Shown here: positions 1 to 12,434 of the stretch, one piece after another | How positions within the stretch are numbered: position 1 is the first letter of the stretch | Layout of the letters: every line of letters begins with the position of its first letter | NCBI GenBank assembly: GCA_937879845.1 | Contig: CALFML010000712.1 | Location: forward strand, 1 to 12,434 | DNA length: 12,434 nucleotides | Direction of reading: 5' to 3' | Origin: an uncultured Myxococcales bacterium | GTDB lineage: Bacteria; Myxococcota_A; Polyangia; Palsa-1104; JAEUJZ01 | Notes under the pieces: generated by a model | Database searches by the model: none | What the model saw: only the letters and a program-made list of their open reading frames with translations | What the model was told of the DNA's origin: nothing | Made by a program: the position numbers and the translations under genes

Positions 1-684
1 CGGGCGCAGATCGCCAACGCGGTGCGCGACGCCGAAAACGCCGAGAACCAGGCCACCCAGGAGATCCTGCAGGAGGAAGCGGCGGCGCGGCAGCTGGCCG
101 AGGTCGCGGCCAAAGAAGCGGAGATCGGCGTCGCCCAGCGCCGCAACCAGCTGCGCCAGCTGGTCGGTCAGCTGGAAGGCAACGCCCAGGCGATCGAGCG
201 CGAGGCGAGCGTCGCCGCCGAGCAGGCGCGCGCCGAGGCGGAGCAGGAGCTGCAGACCCTGCGCAAGGAGCTGGAGCAGCGCCGCCTGTACGCCGAGATC
301 GTCCTGCCCGCCGAAGCGCAGCAGCAAGCGGCGATGCTCCTGGCCGAAGGCGAAGCCGCCCTGCGGCGCGAGCAGGGCGCCGCCGCCGCCGAAGCGATGA
401 CCGTGCTGGCGCAGGCGCTGGTCACGGTCGGGCCGCAGGCGCGCGAGCTGTTCGTGCTGTCGCAGCTCGATCAGCTGGTCGGTCAGGTCGCGGCCAAGGT
501 GAGCGGCCTGTCGGTGCGCGAGATCCACGTCATCGATAGCGGCGACGGCCGCGCTCTGCCGTCGGTCGCCGCGAGCTATCCGGCCATCGTGACCCAGGTG
601 CTAGCGACGCTCAAAGACCTCACCGGGGTGGACATCTCCGCGATGCTCGCCCGGCCTGCTGAAGTGGATGGAGGTGCGCCATGA
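1..684 (+). CDS. Flotillin/SPFH (band 7) family protein, C-terminal part (5' end off-window)
   Basis: The frame-1 ORF is open from nt 1 (track start 22 is only the first Met) to TGA at 682-684. The translation is a coiled-coil Ala/Glu/Gln-rich flotillin region (EQARAEAEQELQTLRKELEQRR...). It is followed by the typical flotillin C-terminal tail (...VGQVAAKVSGLSVREIHVIDSGDG...). The stop overlaps the next start in an ATGA arrangement. Confidence 0.7.
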   Translation, partial: RAQIANAVRDAENAENQATQEILQEEAAARQLAEVAAKEAEIGVAQRRNQLRQLVGQLEGNAQAIEREASVAAEQARAEAEQELQTLRKELEQRRLYAEIVLPAEAQQQAAMLLAEGEAALRREQGAAAAEAMTVLAQALVTVGPQARELFVLSQLDQLVGQVAAKVSGLSVREIHVIDSGDGRALPSVAASYPAIVTQVLATLKDLTGVDISAMLARPAEVDGGAP

Positions 685-1988
685 GCGTGCTCGGTCTGAC
701 GATTCTGCTCGCCGCCTGCTGCGCCGCGGGCTTTTTCCTGCTCGTCACCATCGCCCGCAACACCGAGGTCTGCCCGCCGAGCGAGGTGCTCATCTTCTCC
801 GGCCGGCCGCGCAAGCTGCGCACCACCTCCGGCCCGCACGACCGCACCGAGGTCGGCTTCCGCATCGTCCGCGGCGGCCGCGCCGTGCGCATCCCGCTCA
901 TCGAGACGGTCAACCGCATGACCCTCACCAACATGGCTATAGAGCTGTCGGTGACCAACGCCTTTTCGCGCGGCGGCATCCCGCTGAAGATCCACGCCGT
1001 CGCCAACATCAAGATCCCCAGCGAAGAGCCGCTGCTCCACAACGCCATCGAGCGGTTCCTGGGCTACCCGCGTGAGGGCATCATGCGCGTCGCCAAGGAC
1101 ACCCTGGAAGGCAACCTGCGCGGCGTCATCGCCGAGCTTACGCCCGAGGAGATCAACCAGCAGAAGACGATCTTCCAGCAGAAGCTCATCGAAGAGGCGG
1201 ACAAGGATCTGCAGCGGCTGGGCCTGGTGCTCGACAACCTGCAGATTCAGAACATCAGCGACGATGTCGGCTACCTGAGCTCGGTAGGGCGGGTGCGCGG
1301 GGCGATGGCCAACCGCAACGCCAAGATCGCCGAGGTCAAGGCCATCGCCAGCGCCCTCGTGCAGAAGGCGCGCAACCAGATGCAGGCGGAGATCGCCAAG
1401 ATCGAAGCCGAGATGCAGGTGGCGCAGAAGGAAAACGAGCGCCGCATCGTCGAGGCCAAGACCAAGCGTGAGGCGGTCATCGCCGAGGTCCGCGGCCAGG
1501 TCAAGGCGCAGGTCTCGGAAGCTTCGGCGCAGGTCAAGTCGTGGGAGGCGCGCGGCGAGCAGATGCGGCGCAAGCTGGAGGCCGACGTGGTCGCTCCGGC
1601 GGCGGCCAGCAAGGCCCAGGCAGAGGCCAACGCCAAGGCGCAGGCGGCGACGGTGGCGGCGCAGGGCCGGGCGGGAGCGGCGGCGCTTACGAGCCTGGCC
1701 GAGGCCTACCAGTCGGGCGGCGAGTTCGCGCGCGAGTCGCTGCTCTTGCAGAAGCTGTTGCCGGTGTTTGAGCAGCTCACGAGCACCATGAAGGCCCTGC
1801 GCATCGACCGGCTGACCGTGCTCGGGCAGTCGGCGGGCGGCGGCGCGGGCGCGGCTTTCGGTCCGGCGGTGGTCGCCACCAATGAGCAGGTGCGGGCGGC
1901 GACCGGCGTGGATCTTTTGTCTTCGCTGCAGCGGCGCATCGCAGTCGCACCACCGGGCGAAAAAGGCGGCGCACCGGGTTCCAAGTAG
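681..1988 (+). CDS. Flotillin-like SPFH/band-7 domain membrane protein (435 aa)
   Basis: ATG at 681 overlaps the upstream stop (ATGA). There is an N-terminal TM helix (LGLTILLAACCAAGFFLLVTIA). An SPFH domain follows (EVLIFSGRP...GFRIVRGGRAVRIPLIETVNRMTLTNMAIELSVTNAFSRGGIPLKIHAVANIKI). After that comes a long EA-rich coiled-coil flotillin region. Stop TAG is at 1986-1988. Confidence 0.8.
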   Translation: MSVLGLTILLAACCAAGFFLLVTIARNTEVCPPSEVLIFSGRPRKLRTTSGPHDRTEVGFRIVRGGRAVRIPLIETVNRMTLTNMAIELSVTNAFSRGGIPLKIHAVANIKIPSEEPLLHNAIERFLGYPREGIMRVAKDTLEGNLRGVIAELTPEEINQQKTIFQQKLIEEADKDLQRLGLVLDNLQIQNISDDVGYLSSVGRVRGAMANRNAKIAEVKAIASALVQKARNQMQAEIAKIEAEMQVAQKENERRIVEAKTKREAVIAEVRGQVKAQVSEASAQVKSWEARGEQMRRKLEADVVAPAAASKAQAEANAKAQAATVAAQGRAGAAALTSLAEAYQSGGEFARESLLLQKLLPVFEQLTSTMKALRIDRLTVLGQSAGGGAGAAFGPAVVATNEQVRAATGVDLLSSLQRRIAVAPPGEKGGAPGSK

Positions 1989-2179
1989 GGTCGCGGCGGC
2001 GTCTGGGGCGTTCAGGTCGCAGTCAAAAAAGAGACTCATGGACGCACGTCAAAGCCGACTTATGCTGGCTGCGCCGCGGGGCCCGTCACCTGCGGCACCC
2101 CGTCGCTGGCGCGTCGGGGGCCCCGCCTCCGGCGCCACCCGCTGAAGGGTAAAATGGCGGGACCGCTTGGGCCGGCTGC

Positions 2180-6991: not shown

Positions 6992-7666
6992 ATGACGAAG
7001 AAGTGGATTGTTTTGGGCGCCGGACTTTTACTGCTCGTCCTTGCGGGCGCCGCCGCGTCCTACATCGGGCCGCGCAACATCATCGGCATCCTGCGCTACG
7101 ACACGCGCCGCGAGGGAGAGCTCAAGCTCGGCGACGCCGCCCCCGATGTCGAGCTCGTGGCGCTTGGCGATGACACCGGCGCCGGAGCCAGTCGCATCAG
7201 GCTGCGCGAAAAGCTGCACGGGCGGCCCCTTGTGCTGATCTTCGGCAGCTTCACCTGACCCCCGTTTCGGCGCTCGGTCGAGCGCCTCCAACAGCTTTAC
7301 CGAAGCTATAAGGGCCAGGTCGATTTTTTGACCATCTACATTCGCGAGGCGCACCCGACCGACGAATGGCAGATGACCGCCAACGAGCGCGACAGCGTCT
7401 GCTACCGCCAGCCGCACAGCACCGCCGCGCGGGCGGCGATCGCGCGCGACTTCCGCGCCCGCTTCCACTACGAGCTGCCGCTAGTCGTCGACGCGATCGA
7501 AAACCCCGCCGACAAGCTCTACGCCGGCTGGCCGGAGCGCTTCTACATCCTTTCTGCAGAAGGCTCCATCGTCTATAAAGGCCAGCTCGGCCCCTTCGGC
7601 TTCCACCCCGAAGAAGTGGAAGCCTGGCTCAAAGCACACGCTCCCGCTGCGGCGCCGCCAAAATAA
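6992..7666 (+). CDS. Iodothyronine-deiodinase-like thioredoxin-fold selenoprotein (224 aa). In-frame UGA at 7256-7258 is read as selenocysteine.
   Basis: ATG at 6992 ([26 protein letters not shown], a TM helix). The frame is open to TGA at 7256-7258. It continues in the same frame through 7259-7327 with no stop, into track ORF 7328..7666 (7328-5972=1356, divisible by 3). The joined translation is ...[51 protein letters not shown]...[48 protein letters not shown] matches the deiodinase active site (FGSCTUPPF / FGSATUPPF). [12 protein letters not shown] matches the deiodinase YIEEAH.SDGW block. PERFYIL..G.IVYKG..GP....EEV matches the deiodinase C-terminal block. Stop TAA at 7664-7666. Confidence 0.8.
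7269..7286 (+). promoter_or_regulatory. Putative bacterial SECIS hairpin directing Sec insertion at UGA 7256-7258
   Basis: Perfect inverted repeat GGCGCUC / GAGCGCC (7269-7275 / 7280-7286) around a GGUC tetraloop (7276-7279). The hairpin starts 11 nt after the UGA. From memory, the minimal E. coli fdhF SECIS is a 17-nt upper stem-loop placed 11 nt downstream of the UGA, with apical loop GGUC whose G and U contact SelB. Confidence 0.6.
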
Positions 7667-7780: not shown

Positions 7781-7791
7781 TCAAAATCGAG

Positions 7792-7863
7792 AGCGGGAGA
7801 AGGGACTTGAACCCTCGACGTCCACCTTGGCAAGGTGGCACTCTACCACTGAGTTACTCCCGC
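7792..7863 (-). tRNA. tRNA-Gly (anticodon GCC), 72 nt, no encoded CCA
   Basis: Reverse complement is GCGGGAG-TA-ACTC-AGTGGTA-GAGT-G-CCACC-TTGCCAA-GGTGG-ACGTC-GAGGG-TTCAAGT-CCCTT-CTCCCGC-T. It forms a 7-bp acceptor stem, D arm, a 5-bp anticodon stem with loop uuGCCaa, a 5-nt variable loop, and a T arm with a TTCAAGT loop. It closely resembles E. coli tRNA-Gly(GCC). Confidence 0.9.
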
Positions 7864-9414: not shown

Positions 9415-11025
9415 TCAAAACAGCTTCGGATCGAGGCTCGGGAAGAGGTTATCGCGCGACTCGCAATCGGCGACAAACGCTTCGTCGATCGTCCCCGATT
9501 CGAGATCGCTCGCCAGCTTGGTAAAGCGCTGCAGATGCGTCTTGACCCGCGATTCGGCATACGACACCGCCGTCCCGGTCTTCATGATGAACGCCCAATC
9601 CGACGACTGCGCGAGCAGCAGCTCACGTCCGGCTTGGGTGAGCGCCCGCTGAATCAGCGCCTGCTGCGGACTTTCTTGCGGATCTTTGCTCGCAAACTTG
9701 GTCACAAGCTCGTGCAGTCTCGATTCGGCGTGGTGCAGGTGACGGTAAATCCAGTCGTTGCTCTGATCGAGCCACACCGCGGAATAGCCGCCTTCACCCC
9801 ACGACGACGGCGCCGGTTCGCAGACCGCGTTGACGGGATGATCGACAAGATAACCGCTCGCGGTCTGAAGCTGCACGACACTGCCGGGCTCGCTGCACAG
9901 CCGCAGCACTTCGCCCAGAAACATCGGCCCCTCGAACCACCAGTGGCCAAACAGCTCGGCGTCATACGGCGAAACAATCACCGGACGGCGATCCATCCGC
10001 TGCGACAGCCAGGCAATCTGCGCTTGGCGCTTTTCGACGAAGTCCCGCGCATGCTCGCGCGCTTTTGCCCGCGCCAGTTCCGGCTGATACGGCGCTTTGT
10101 CTTGCAGATCGACGCGCGCCCCCGTCACCCGGTGGTACTTGTAGCCGGTGTTGACGCGGATGCCGTCGGGATGAATGTACGGAGCGATCTGCTCAAGCGG
10201 CCTGTCAAAGCCGATGTCGCGATAAAATTCGCGATACACACCGTCGGCGGGATAGCCTTCCGTCGACGACCACACCTGCTTTGATGACATCAGGTCGCGA
10301 CCAAACGCCGCCACGCCAGCGCGGGTGAAAATCGGCGCATGCAGCCCGAGCGGCGGACGCGGTCGCGCATACGTCAGTCCGTGCGCATCCAGGAAGAAGT
10401 AGCGCAGGTCTAGCTCGGCGAGCAGCTCGTCCAGCCCGTCGACGTAGCCACACTCAGGCAGCCAGATGCCGCGCGGATAGCGACCAAAACACTCGCGGTA
10501 GTGACGGACCGCGATAATCAGCTGCGCCCGACGCGCCGACGGCTTTTGCACCACCGGCAGATAGGCATGCGTCGCACAGGTCGTAATCAGTTCGACCGTG
10601 CCGCGATCTTGAAGCTGACCAAATGCCGCGACCAAGTCACTGTCCAGCGAACGCCACAGCGCCCGCAGCTCGGTAAACCGCGACAGGTAAAAGCGCACCA
10701 GCTCCGATTGCGCGGGATCTGCTTTGGCGCGGGTCAGTTCCTCTTCCCCGAGCCGCAGCAGTCTATCGAGATAGCTGCGATAGCGGTCGGTCAAGAGCTT
10801 GTCGCGCAGCATCGAACACAGCGTCGGCGAAAGCGACAGCGTCAGCTTGGGCCCAGATGATGTCGTGCCAAACTTTTGCAGCTCTTGCACAAGCGGCAGA
10901 TACGTCGCGGTGATCGCTTCGTAGAGCCAGTTTTCTTCCAGGTGATAGGAATTTTCGGGGTGGCGCACATACGGCAGGTGCGCGTGAAGCAAAAGAAGCA
11001 GATCACCCCGAGCCGCCGCCGACAT
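9415..11025 (-). CDS. GH57 family 1,4-alpha-glucan branching enzyme-like protein
   Basis: GH57 N-terminus LLLLLHAHLPYVRHPE. Nucleophile motif GIWLPECGY. Acid/base motif SPYDAELFGHWWFEGP. The C-terminal alpha-helical region (...WGEGGYSAVWLDQSNDWIYRHLHHAE...) is characteristic of GH57 branching enzymes (TK1436/TTHA1902 type). Start is chosen at ATG 11025-11023 (MSAAARGDLLLL...). It overlaps the upstream stop by 1 nt (TGATG). The track's first ATG at 11103 would overlap the upstream gene by 78 nt and adds a non-conserved 26-aa extension. Confidence 0.8.
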   Translation of the reverse strand: MSAAARGDLLLLLHAHLPYVRHPENSYHLEENWLYEAITATYLPLVQELQKFGTTSSGPKLTLSLSPTLCSMLRDKLLTDRYRSYLDRLLRLGEEELTRAKADPAQSELVRFYLSRFTELRALWRSLDSDLVAAFGQLQDRGTVELITTCATHAYLPVVQKPSARRAQLIIAVRHYRECFGRYPRGIWLPECGYVDGLDELLAELDLRYFFLDAHGLTYARPRPPLGLHAPIFTRAGVAAFGRDLMSSKQVWSSTEGYPADGVYREFYRDIGFDRPLEQIAPYIHPDGIRVNTGYKYHRVTGARVDLQDKAPYQPELARAKAREHARDFVEKRQAQIAWLSQRMDRRPVIVSPYDAELFGHWWFEGPMFLGEVLRLCSEPGSVVQLQTASGYLVDHPVNAVCEPAPSSWGEGGYSAVWLDQSNDWIYRHLHHAESRLHELVTKFASKDPQESPQQALIQRALTQAGRELLLAQSSDWAFIMKTGTAVSYAESRVKTHLQRFTKLASDLESGTIDEAFVADCESRDNLFPSLDPKLF

Positions 11026-12434
11026 CACAGACCTCCGCTCTTGCCTGGCTGTGGTGTAAGACCACTGCTTGTCGGACTGCTCGACGGAGCATCGACGATC
11101 CATTCCGAGTCCGTCACCGGTAGCTGCCCGGACGGCGGAGAACTCCCCGTCCGCCAGGGAAGCTCACGCTCTTTGTGCGGCGTCTGGGGCCGTGACAGCA
11201 CGATATGTTCACGCTGCCTCCCGTCGCCAGAAACCGGCTGCACATGCGCCCATTCGATCGCGGTTTCCGACGATGGATGCATCGGCGGCAAGCGCACTGA
11301 CTGCGACTGTGCGATCGGCGAAAACAGACCGTCTTTCGACACAAGACCCACCGCCGCCCGCAGGTGCGCCCCGGCTTTCGGTGACTCCAGATATTTTTTG
11401 CCGTGGTGCTGGTGCAGCGAAAGATCGCGAATTTCGCGGTTTTCGCGCCCCTGCGGGAGCTGCGTCGTGATGAACACCCGCAAAATCAGACGGCCATCGC
11501 CTTCAGAAATCCCGAGCTGCGACTGCGCTTGCGCAAGCCCCGCCGCCGTCACTTCCCAGTAGATGAAGTACCAGTGCGGATCTTTGGACAGGATCTCGAC
11601 TTCGTCGCGCCCATACGTTTCGGGCAGCGCGTCATCGTGAGCCGCTCGTCGCCGCTGTTTTGGTTCAGGCGAGCTGTCGCCCTGACCACTGCCATCCTGA
11701 TGTGTAAAAACCGCCGCGGACGACGAGTGCCCGCCGTCGTGTGGTGGTCGTCCGCCTGCTTCCCTGTCTGTCCCGGAACCCATGGCAACTCCAGCTCCGT
11801 CGCGCGCCGCCAAAACGTCGCGGTCTGCAGACGGAGTCCCCCCGGTTAGCTGTCTTGTGGTGGCGATGTCTTTGTGGATCTGCGCGACCAGCTCCGCCAC
11901 CTGGGAAAACTTCTTCTCGTCACGCAGCCGGGCCACAAAGCACAATCGCAGCTCGCAGCCATACAGCGAGGGAAGCGTTTCACCCGCCGCGAGCAAAAGG
12001 TGTGCTTCGACGGAGAGTGGCGACGTTTCGACCGTACCCGGACCCTGGAACGTTGGATTATATCCAAGGTTTACCGCCGCAGGGTGTCTAGCCGCCACAG
12101 GCCGCAACACCGACGGGGACAACGGGTCAATCGGCGCCAAAATTTCCGCCCACGCCGCATAGACACCGGGCCGCAGCTTCACATCCGAATGCACGCGCAG
12201 GTTGGCTGTCGGGACATCGATGGTTCGCCCTCGCCCATGGCCATGCACCACCGTCCCTTCGACCTCGGGAGCCCGCCCAAGCAAAAGCGCCGCCCGGTCG
12301 ACATCCCCGTCGCCAAGCGCCTTGCGAATCAGCGTCGATGAACAGATCAGCGTATCGCCGCTCGCCGTCGAAACCGTGATCGCGCCAAGCTGCAGATCGG
12401 AAGAGCACACGTCTGAACTCCAGTCACGCCAATG
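11025..12434 (-). CDS. ribF: Bifunctional riboflavin kinase/FMN adenylyltransferase (RibF), 5' end off-window, fused in-frame to a ~275-aa C-terminal extension containing a DUF4912-like domain
   Basis: The frame is open to the window edge; the track's start at 12410 is a GTG. The N-terminal part matches the RibF FAD-synthetase C-terminus (ICSSTLIRKALGDGDVDRAALLLGR, compare E. coli ISSTAVRQALADDNLALAESLLG). It also matches the riboflavin kinase domain (VVHGHGRGRTIDVPTANL...GVYA...NLGYNPTF...VEAHLLL...LYG.ELRLCFVARLRDEKKFSQVAELVAQIHKDIATTRQL). Where E. coli RibF ends, this ORF instead continues with no stop. A G/S/D/P-rich linker (residues ~186-267) is followed by KDPHWYFIYWEV...GRLILRVFITTQ...REIRDLSLHQHHGKKYLESPKAGAHLRAAVGLVSKDGLFSPIAQSQSVRLPP (nt ~11280-11609). 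As I recall, this resembles Pfam DUF4912, a family often encoded next to GH57 genes. Stop TGA at 11027-11025. Confidence 0.7.
   Translation of the reverse strand, partial: HWRDWSSDVCSSDLQLGAITVSTASGDTLICSSTLIRKALGDGDVDRAALLLGRAPEVEGTVVHGHGRGRTIDVPTANLRVHSDVKLRPGVYAAWAEILAPIDPLSPSVLRPVAARHPAAVNLGYNPTFQGPGTVETSPLSVEAHLLLAAGETLPSLYGCELRLCFVARLRDEKKFSQVAELVAQIHKDIATTRQLTGGTPSADRDVLAARDGAGVAMGSGTDREAGGRPPHDGGHSSSAAVFTHQDGSGQGDSSPEPKQRRRAAHDDALPETYGRDEVEILSKDPHWYFIYWEVTAAGLAQAQSQLGISEGDGRLILRVFITTQLPQGRENREIRDLSLHQHHGKKYLESPKAGAHLRAAVGLVSKDGLFSPIAQSQSVRLPPMHPSSETAIEWAHVQPVSGDGRQREHIVLSRPQTPHKERELPWRTGSSPPSGQLPVTDSEWIVDAPSSSPTSSGLTPQPGKSGGL

Follow-up and report, generated by a model that had tools for sequence, protein, structure and literature searches.

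A probable selenocysteine insertion hairpin inside the coding region of a deiodinase-like selenoprotein gene from an uncultured Myxococcales bacterium

In this work we examined a 12,434-nucleotide (nt) stretch of DNA from an uncultured Myxococcales bacterium (contig CALFML010000712.1), referred to as the window, and within it a small hairpin that follows an in-frame UGA codon of a deiodinase-like gene and that an earlier note, made from the sequence alone, had proposed to be a selenocysteine insertion sequence (SECIS). The window carries gyrA, a tRNA-Gly gene and genes for an M18 aminopeptidase, a GH57 branching enzyme, a riboflavin kinase, a GH113 protein and a CDP-alcohol phosphatidyltransferase. 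On the forward strand, an open reading frame (ORF) extends from an ATG at 6992 to a TAA at 7664-7666, and its translation is interrupted only once, by a TGA at 7256-7258 that lies in frame. The gene and the elements around this codon, as we read them, are listed below in window coordinates, where counts out of 80 refer to an alignment of genome homologues (A1) that is described further on.

6992..7666, forward strand: predicted deiodinase-like selenoprotein gene, 224 codons including the selenocysteine (Sec) codon, ATG start and TAA stop.
7256..7258, forward strand: in-frame UGA, probably read as Sec within the motif FGSFT-U-PPF, based on the conserved TGA and the alignment with Cys forms and Dio3.
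7259..7268, forward strand: spacer of 10 nt between UGA and stem, comprising the codons for PPF and the first base of an Arg codon, as read from the sequence.
7269..7275, forward strand: 5' arm GGCGCUC, from RNAfold and from pairing in homologues; the outermost G (7269) pairs in 38/80.
7276..7279, forward strand: apical loop GGUC, presumed SelB contact; GGU is invariant in 80/80 (A1 invariant columns 30-32) and C is present in 77/80.
7280..7286, forward strand: 3' arm GAGCGCC, from RNAfold, with compensatory pairs 7270/7285, 7273/7282 and 7274/7281.

When the TGA is read through, the 224-residue product matches the Pfam family T4_deiodinase (PF00837) with E = 3.6e-36 and 125.1 bits (cut-off 27) over residues 43-214, and this match extends across the TGA on both sides of the codon. 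The best solved-structure matches were mouse type III deiodinase Dio3 (4tr3, E = 4.9e-24) and type II deiodinase Dio2 (9h48). FGSFT-U-PPF in the window aligned with FGSCT-C-PPF of the crystallised Dio3, so that the TGA occupies the active-site position. With an FGSxT-U-PPF motif and a T4_deiodinase score above the gathering threshold, the product falls within the deiodinase-like selenoproteins (PF00837). The N-terminus (window 6992-7070) is hydrophobic and looks like a single membrane anchor or a signal sequence, recalling the anchor of the animal deiodinases.

Two sets of homologues were collected. When one genome of each GTDB species was scanned, 80 loci with full-length relatives at 47-71% identity were recovered, mostly from metagenome-assembled genomes (MAGs) labelled Acidobacteriota or Thermoanaerobaculia; the others were from Planctomycetota, Myxococcota (among them two cultured Polyangium strains), Pseudomonadota, Eisenbacteria and Verrucomicrobiae, and the two closest relatives, L001 (DAOMZC01) and L002 (DAORCZ01), were both labelled Pseudomonadota. 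A further 80 loci came from metagenomes, for which a homologue containing Cys served as the seed. The codon was TGA in all 80 genome homologues. Among the metagenome loci, the active-site motif was located in 79, of which 74 had TGA and five a Cys codon (TGT/TGC), while the 80th, L092, had TGG (Trp) at this position; in the alignment, the TGA column holds TGT or TGC in some bacterial homologues. The UGA-C context was invariant in the genome homologues (80/80). The two codons that follow specified Pro in 80/80, but all four third bases were used (third-position entropy 1.66 and 1.48). Since these Pro codons vary only synonymously, the sequence directly 3' of the UGA is under selection at the protein level, i.e., it is translated.

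These data bear on whether the UGA is a true stop, in which case the locus would be a pseudogene or two genes, with the hairpin serving as a regulatory, terminator or stability element between them. The C-terminal part is indeed annotated as a separate protein of ~124 amino acids (aa) in most genomes, and 116 of the 120 best protein-database matches were C-terminal fragments of 123-167 aa starting past the TGA; such fragments exist in the databases because gene callers stop at TGA. Some of them (among P0004-P0120) carry the name 'type I thyroxine 5'-deiodinase'. TGA also serves as the ordinary stop of three of the eight large ORFs in the window, which can be quoted in favor of a true stop. The TGA, however, is kept at the catalytic codon across several phyla, a single Pfam domain spans it, the 23 codons between it and the first possible restart (TTG at 7328) are conserved as protein and align with Dio3, and there is no ATG ahead of the WQM motif. 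A terminator was rejected, as no T-run follows the stem (sequence TCCAACAGC). Taken together, we find it scarcely credible that translation ends at this codon. We also considered genome-wide reassignment of UGA, and this was ruled out: because three neighboring large ORFs stop at TGA, the genetic code is not reassigned.

Next to the UGA, the sequence itself contains the hairpin as it had first been described, a perfect 7-bp stem with a 4-nt loop at 7269-7286 (GGCGCUC-GGUC-GAGCGCC). RNAfold of 7256-7300 returned exactly this structure as both the minimum free energy (MFE) and the centroid fold (-14.3 kcal/mol), and the 18-mer by itself folded at -12.9 kcal/mol (z = -3.7). Two details of the earlier description need correction. 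The hairpin had been placed 11 nt after the UGA; the stem does begin at the eleventh nucleotide, but only 10 nt intervene (7259-7268). It had also been said to encode FRRSVER, of which RRSVER(L) is indeed encoded there while the Phe codon (7265-7267) lies outside. We then compared the hairpin with the bacterial SECIS consensus, i.e., the bSECISearch model of Zhang & Gladyshev 2005 as restated in PMC13188914, which calls for a loop of 3-9 nt, an upper stem of 4-16 bp, an MFE of -7.5 kcal/mol or below, at least one G in the first two loop positions (G, then G or U) and a UGA-loop distance of 16-37 nt (PMC13188914). The window hairpin has a 4-nt loop opening with GG, a 7-bp stem, a UGA-loop distance of 17 nt (7259-7275) and an MFE of -12.9 (18-mer) or -14.3 kcal/mol (in context); its place, too, is that of a bacterial SECIS, within the coding sequence and directly after an in-frame UGA at whose position homologues carry Cys or Sec. 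Nothing in it conflicts with the consensus, and it agrees with every published point. Because the consensus is permissive, this fit alone is weak evidence, and the weight lies in the comparative data. The single sequence is only mildly unusual: the forward strand of the window (67% G+C) contains 15 perfect 7-bp hairpins with loops of 3-9 nt, although the one at 7269-7286 is the only one with a 4-nt loop; at about 1.6% of window positions, a perfect 7-bp hairpin that has a G in its loop follows at the distance of a SECIS; and the fold is equalled by 6% of the 33-nt segments of the window. The evidence that exceeds chance is the comparison of homologues.

For this comparison the 80 genome sequences were aligned (A1) and nucleotides were numbered from the U of the UGA as nt 1. 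In A1, 84.3% of the cells of the hairpin structure were paired, compared to 76.6% in column shuffles (0 of 500), and pairing was 35-60% when the 3' partners were slid. The covariation score was 0.204, compared to 0.073 in shuffled alignments (0 of 500). In a gene-wide scan of the 80-sequence codon alignment, the helix nt 15-20/25-30 ranked first among 3,199 candidate 6-bp helices: 90.4% of its cells were paired and 76% of the sequences had every pair intact, whereas the best unrelated helix was complete in 21%. The conserved element is a 5-6-bp stem with a GGUC loop.

Because the arms of the hairpin fall within conserved Arg, Ser, Val, Glu and Arg codons, one may ask whether it is a by-product of the conservation of RRSVER in a G+C-rich genome, without any function at the RNA level. 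The G+C content of 67%, a fold z-score of only -1.7 and the frequency of equally good folds in the window (6%) would all be expected under such an explanation. The synonymous positions, however, behave otherwise. In the 77 columns of the alignment where four-fold-degenerate codons predominate, the entropy of the third position ranged from 0.5 to 1.74 bits outside the hairpin, whereas in the loop these positions are frozen. The third base of codon +6 (loop G21) was G in 73 of 73 four-fold codons (entropy 0) and in 80/80 overall, also where the codon is CAG or AAG, and the third base of Val +7 (loop C24) was C in 77/80 (entropy 0.23), and no other four-fold column of the gene is as low in entropy. 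In the pair nt 15-30, each base is the third base of an Arg codon; changes on both sides are hence synonymous, and these two positions covary. Its types in the 80 sequences were G-C (43), C-G (10), G-U (8) and A-U (1), with 18 unpaired; a 5' C was accompanied by a 3' G in 10 of 20 sequences, whereas a 5' G was accompanied by a 3' G in 1 of 52. In a neighbor-joining tree built without the hairpin codons, the C-G type appeared in six separate places. In L002, the second-closest relative, a G-C pair of the window has become A-U through synonymous changes on both sides.

Amino acid replacements within the stem were likewise compensated at the RNA level. In all ten variants with Glu replaced by Asp (SVE to SVD; GAG to GAC), the paired Arg third base had changed from C to G (CGC to CGG); in four RRAVAR variants, with Ser and Glu both replaced by Ala (SVE to AVA), a U-A pair had become G-C; and six variants with Glu replaced by Gly yielded U-G. 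Stem changes in the orthologues, which the earlier note had proposed to search for, are thus largely compensatory, and disruption of the stem by non-compensatory substitutions was not the pattern found.

Most TGA forms of the metagenome set have other peptide motifs and other hairpins than the window. Combining both sets gave 140 distinct 45-mers, 134 of them with TGA, and three helix classes were recognized. Class A (74 distinct TGA forms, all GGUC) has the GGUC tetraloop at nt 21-24 and the peptide RRSVER. Class B (14 distinct forms; L075 and L077-L080 also belong here) has GUCGCC-AGGUC-GGCGAC, with the register shifted by one, a 5-nt loop and the peptide RRQVGD. Class C (45 distinct forms) has GCGAGGUA-GGC-UACCUCGU or CGAGAUU-GGA-AAUCUCG at nt 17-24/28-35, in which a stem of 8 bp carries the loop, GGC or GGA, at nt 25-27, and the peptides RREVGYL or RREIGNL. 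In 43 distinct class C sequences, 96.8% of cells were paired, a value that none of 500 shuffles reached (slid controls, 29-55%), with exchanges between G-C and A-U in 14 sequences and between A-U and U-A in 10. Overall, 133 of the 134 distinct TGA forms had at least 5 of 6 pairs in the class A, B or C helix, so that a conserved TGA with the hairpin missing, which the earlier note had named as an outcome that would tell against it, was not what we observed. The sole TGA form outside the three classes (L032:3169-3222, peptide RRRVAQV) was folded by RNAfold into a hairpin of its own, CCGGCGCC...GGUGG (-13.5 kcal/mol), which may be a fourth architecture.

In contrast, all six distinct Cys/Trp forms had 3 of 6 pairs or fewer and no class A, B or C helix, and the Cys forms lacked both the hairpin and the peptide motif. 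Mean MFE was -11.9 for TGA forms, compared to -2.7 to -5.5 for Cys/Trp forms. The hairpin behaves as the SECIS model demands, being maintained with covariation in orthologues and missing from Cys forms; this loss runs, on these sequences, in the direction expected of a SECIS. The same observations return to the by-product explanation: subfamilies with unrelated peptides (RREVGYL, RREIGNL, RRQVGD) still form hairpins, while Cys forms have neither motif nor hairpin. As synonymous constraint comparable to that of the loop was not found at many other positions of the gene, we regard this explanation as already largely refuted and as highly improbable.

Two loci of the Cys type deserve a separate remark. 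L092:601-1256, in the Cys-type clade, reads FGSFT-W-PPFRRNT, with TGG at the Sec/Cys codon, and its N-terminal part is in a different frame; because of this frameshift it looks like a decaying gene, and it is probably a decaying copy. L081:160-753 adjoins a Cys-form deiodinase-like gene and gave a weak match to the CMD family (carboxymuconolactone decarboxylase/AhpD-like), a family with selenoprotein members in the Sargasso Sea list (PMC1088965).

Our preferred interpretation, to which we assign a probability of roughly 0.9, is that the hairpin at 7269-7286 is a bacterial SECIS (bSECIS) located within the coding sequence of a selenoprotein gene of the deiodinase-like type, with a thioredoxin fold. 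The data show that the hairpin is present, that it is conserved as a structure and not only as a sequence, that it is strictly associated with the TGA, and that translation goes on in frame past it. Several observations nevertheless weigh against this interpretation. The single-sequence fold was not significant in its context (z = -1.72; 10 of 200 shuffles as good), but because the authentic SECIS of Escherichia coli fdhF was also non-significant in the same test (z = -1.28), the shuffle z-score has no discriminating power and was dropped as a criterion. The earlier argument that the hairpin supports Sec recoding over a chance stop therefore holds through the comparison of homologues and not through the fold of the single sequence. 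The outermost pair 7269/7286 was kept in only 38 of 80 genome sequences, and the pair nt 15-30 was unpaired in 18 of 80. RNAalifold on all 80 sequences did not return the helix and gave only a 3-bp ACC/GGU pairing without covariation; this failure arises because eight sequences hold the hairpin in another register, and on the 72 core sequences the 6-bp helix returned (-10.7). No SECIS family was found by Rfam, either in the whole window at the gathering threshold or in 7150-7400 at E <= 10, where the only matches were tRNA-Gly and a chance 'hya'; as Rfam has no general bacterial SECIS model, this null carries little weight. Few independent contrasts underlie the co-occurrence of TGA and hairpin, since all Cys forms fall into only one or two clades. 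The stem, a perfect 7 bp, has no equivalent of the bulged U17 of fdhF. Lastly, no selA, selB, selD or tRNA-Sec was detected in the 12.4-kb window (Rfam and ARAGORN; Pfam on the eight large ORFs), and no tRNA-Sec was detected in the flanks of L001-L060 (scanned for tRNAs with ARAGORN). On these searches, the Sec machinery is not linked to the deiodinase-like gene.

If the hairpin acts as the SECIS elements of E. coli and Moorella do, it would lie at the mRNA entrance of the ribosome when UGA 7256-7258 enters the A site. There, the GGU(C) loop would be bound by the C-terminal winged-helix domain of SelB carrying Sec-tRNA(Sec) with GTP, the tethered ternary complex would outcompete release factor 2 (RF2), and Sec would be inserted, after which the ribosome would melt the hairpin and translate it as RRSVER. 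By the same analogy we infer SelB binding, Sec insertion and the presence of selA, selB, selC and selD in the source genome, and possession of the gene makes it probable that the source organism uses selenocysteine.

Since the Sec machinery was not seen in the available sequence, it can be asked whether the hairpin promotes recoding of the UGA without SelB and Sec, either by near-cognate read-through (Trp or Cys) or as a mere ribosome pause. UGA-C is a leaky termination context, and one relative (L092) has TGG at the codon, both of which would be compatible with such recoding. That relative, however, carries the frameshift described above and looks decaying, and alternation of Sec and Cys at one codon is the classical signature of a selenoprotein. 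Moreover, the site is the catalytic Sec position of a family with animal selenoenzymes (PMC1088965), and an invariant GGU opening a small loop 17 nt from the UGA corresponds to the SelB-dependent consensus (PMC13188914). We therefore consider recoding without Sec to be very improbable, and SelB-dependent insertion of Sec remains the preferred explanation.

With regard to the rest of the window, a tRNA-Gly(GCC) gene lies downstream of the deiodinase-like gene both in the window (7791-7863, reverse strand) and in the closest relative (L001:2737-2809), indicating local synteny and giving a hint as to the taxon from which the window comes. Two reverse-strand ORFs, 9415-11103 (GH57 branching enzyme) and 11025-12410 (riboflavin kinase and DUF4912), overlap by 79 nt (11025-11103), and the true start of the GH57 gene probably lies further in than listed. 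A 487-aa ORF (576-2039, reverse strand) and a 220-aa ORF (22-684, forward strand) had no Pfam match at E <= 1e-5.

For annotation, these results mean that the locus should be recorded as one 224-codon selenoprotein rather than as an 88-aa stub and a C-terminal fragment, and that systematic mis-annotation affects the deiodinase-like family in MAGs from soil and sediment, given that 116 of the 120 best matches were truncated by gene callers. A compact set for building a SECIS model of Acidobacteriota and their relatives, a model missing from Rfam, is provided by the 154 Sec forms aligned here, in their three hairpin classes, and by the Cys forms as matched controls. It seems to us an evenly balanced proposition that the SECIS was rebuilt at least twice in this family, with three architectures each dictating its own peptide and with the Cys forms having lost both helix and motif. 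If true, the family would offer a natural series for studying how selection on RNA structure drives amino acid replacement and how SelB specificity drifts between phyla, with the corollary that E. coli SelB might directly recognize the class A hairpin, which has the same loop as fdhF.

Among known systems, the closest point of reference is E. coli fdhF. The fdhF 43-mer used here matched a site under fdhF at 100% identity in 5,413 E. coli records. The two elements share the UGA-C context, a similar size and position and, as the earlier note had stated, an identical GGUC apical loop, with the G and U that contact SelB (G23 and U24 in fdhF). The note's statement that the spacing is also the same is overstated. 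The minimal upper stem-loop of fdhF (17 nt, GGUUGCA-GGUC-UGCACC) begins after 11 intervening nt, compared to 10 for the 7-bp stem of the window, and the loop occupies nt 21-24 in the window and nt 22-25 in fdhF, a shift of 1 nt toward the UGA in the window; counted to 7270, where the conserved 6-bp core of the window stem begins, the spacing is that of E. coli, 11 nt. In E. coli, the bulged U17 is, together with loop G23, a SelB contact, and U17 is required (PMC8659212). The lower stem of fdhF, which includes the UGA region in a 40-nt element, is absent from the MFE structures of 43-45 nt of the window, the isolated hairpin is more stable in the window (-12.9 versus -4.2 kcal/mol), and the codon phase of the GGU differs. 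Judged from its sequence, then, the window element is not an fdhF-type SECIS in detail, having neither a U17 equivalent nor the lower stem.

The animal deiodinases DIO1-3 share with the window protein a homologous catalytic domain, the FGS-x-T-U-PPF active-site motif and a hydrophobic N-terminal segment. Their genes, however, carry a kink-turn SECIS in the 3' untranslated region (UTR), read by SBP2/eEFSec, whereas the window signal is in the coding region, and an Rfam search of the window found no animal-type 3' UTR SECIS. The nearest precedents are bacterial. Sec- and Cys-containing deiodinase-like proteins with a predicted bacterial SECIS were described from the Sargasso Sea metagenome in 2005 by Zhang, Fomenko & Gladyshev, and the Sargasso Sea/Global Ocean Sampling (GOS) selenoproteins belong to the same family (PF00837), occur in Sec and Cys forms and have a bacterial-type SECIS after the UGA; their set comprised four marine sequences, whereas the relatives found here are mostly MAGs of Acidobacteriota/Thermoanaerobaculia together with Myxococcota, Planctomycetota and Pseudomonadota (PMC1088965). 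A current review lists the family with the motif tabulated as 'UxxC' (PMC13188914), whereas all 154 Sec forms here read T-U-P-P/F-F with no Cys at +3, a discrepancy that points to imprecision in the table or to a difference in the marine forms. The window gene and its hairpin are a further example of a kind of gene and signal known since 2005, and they leave existing knowledge of Sec decoding unchanged; what appears mildly new, from the sequences compared, is the occurrence of three alternative hairpin architectures with matching peptide motifs within one family.

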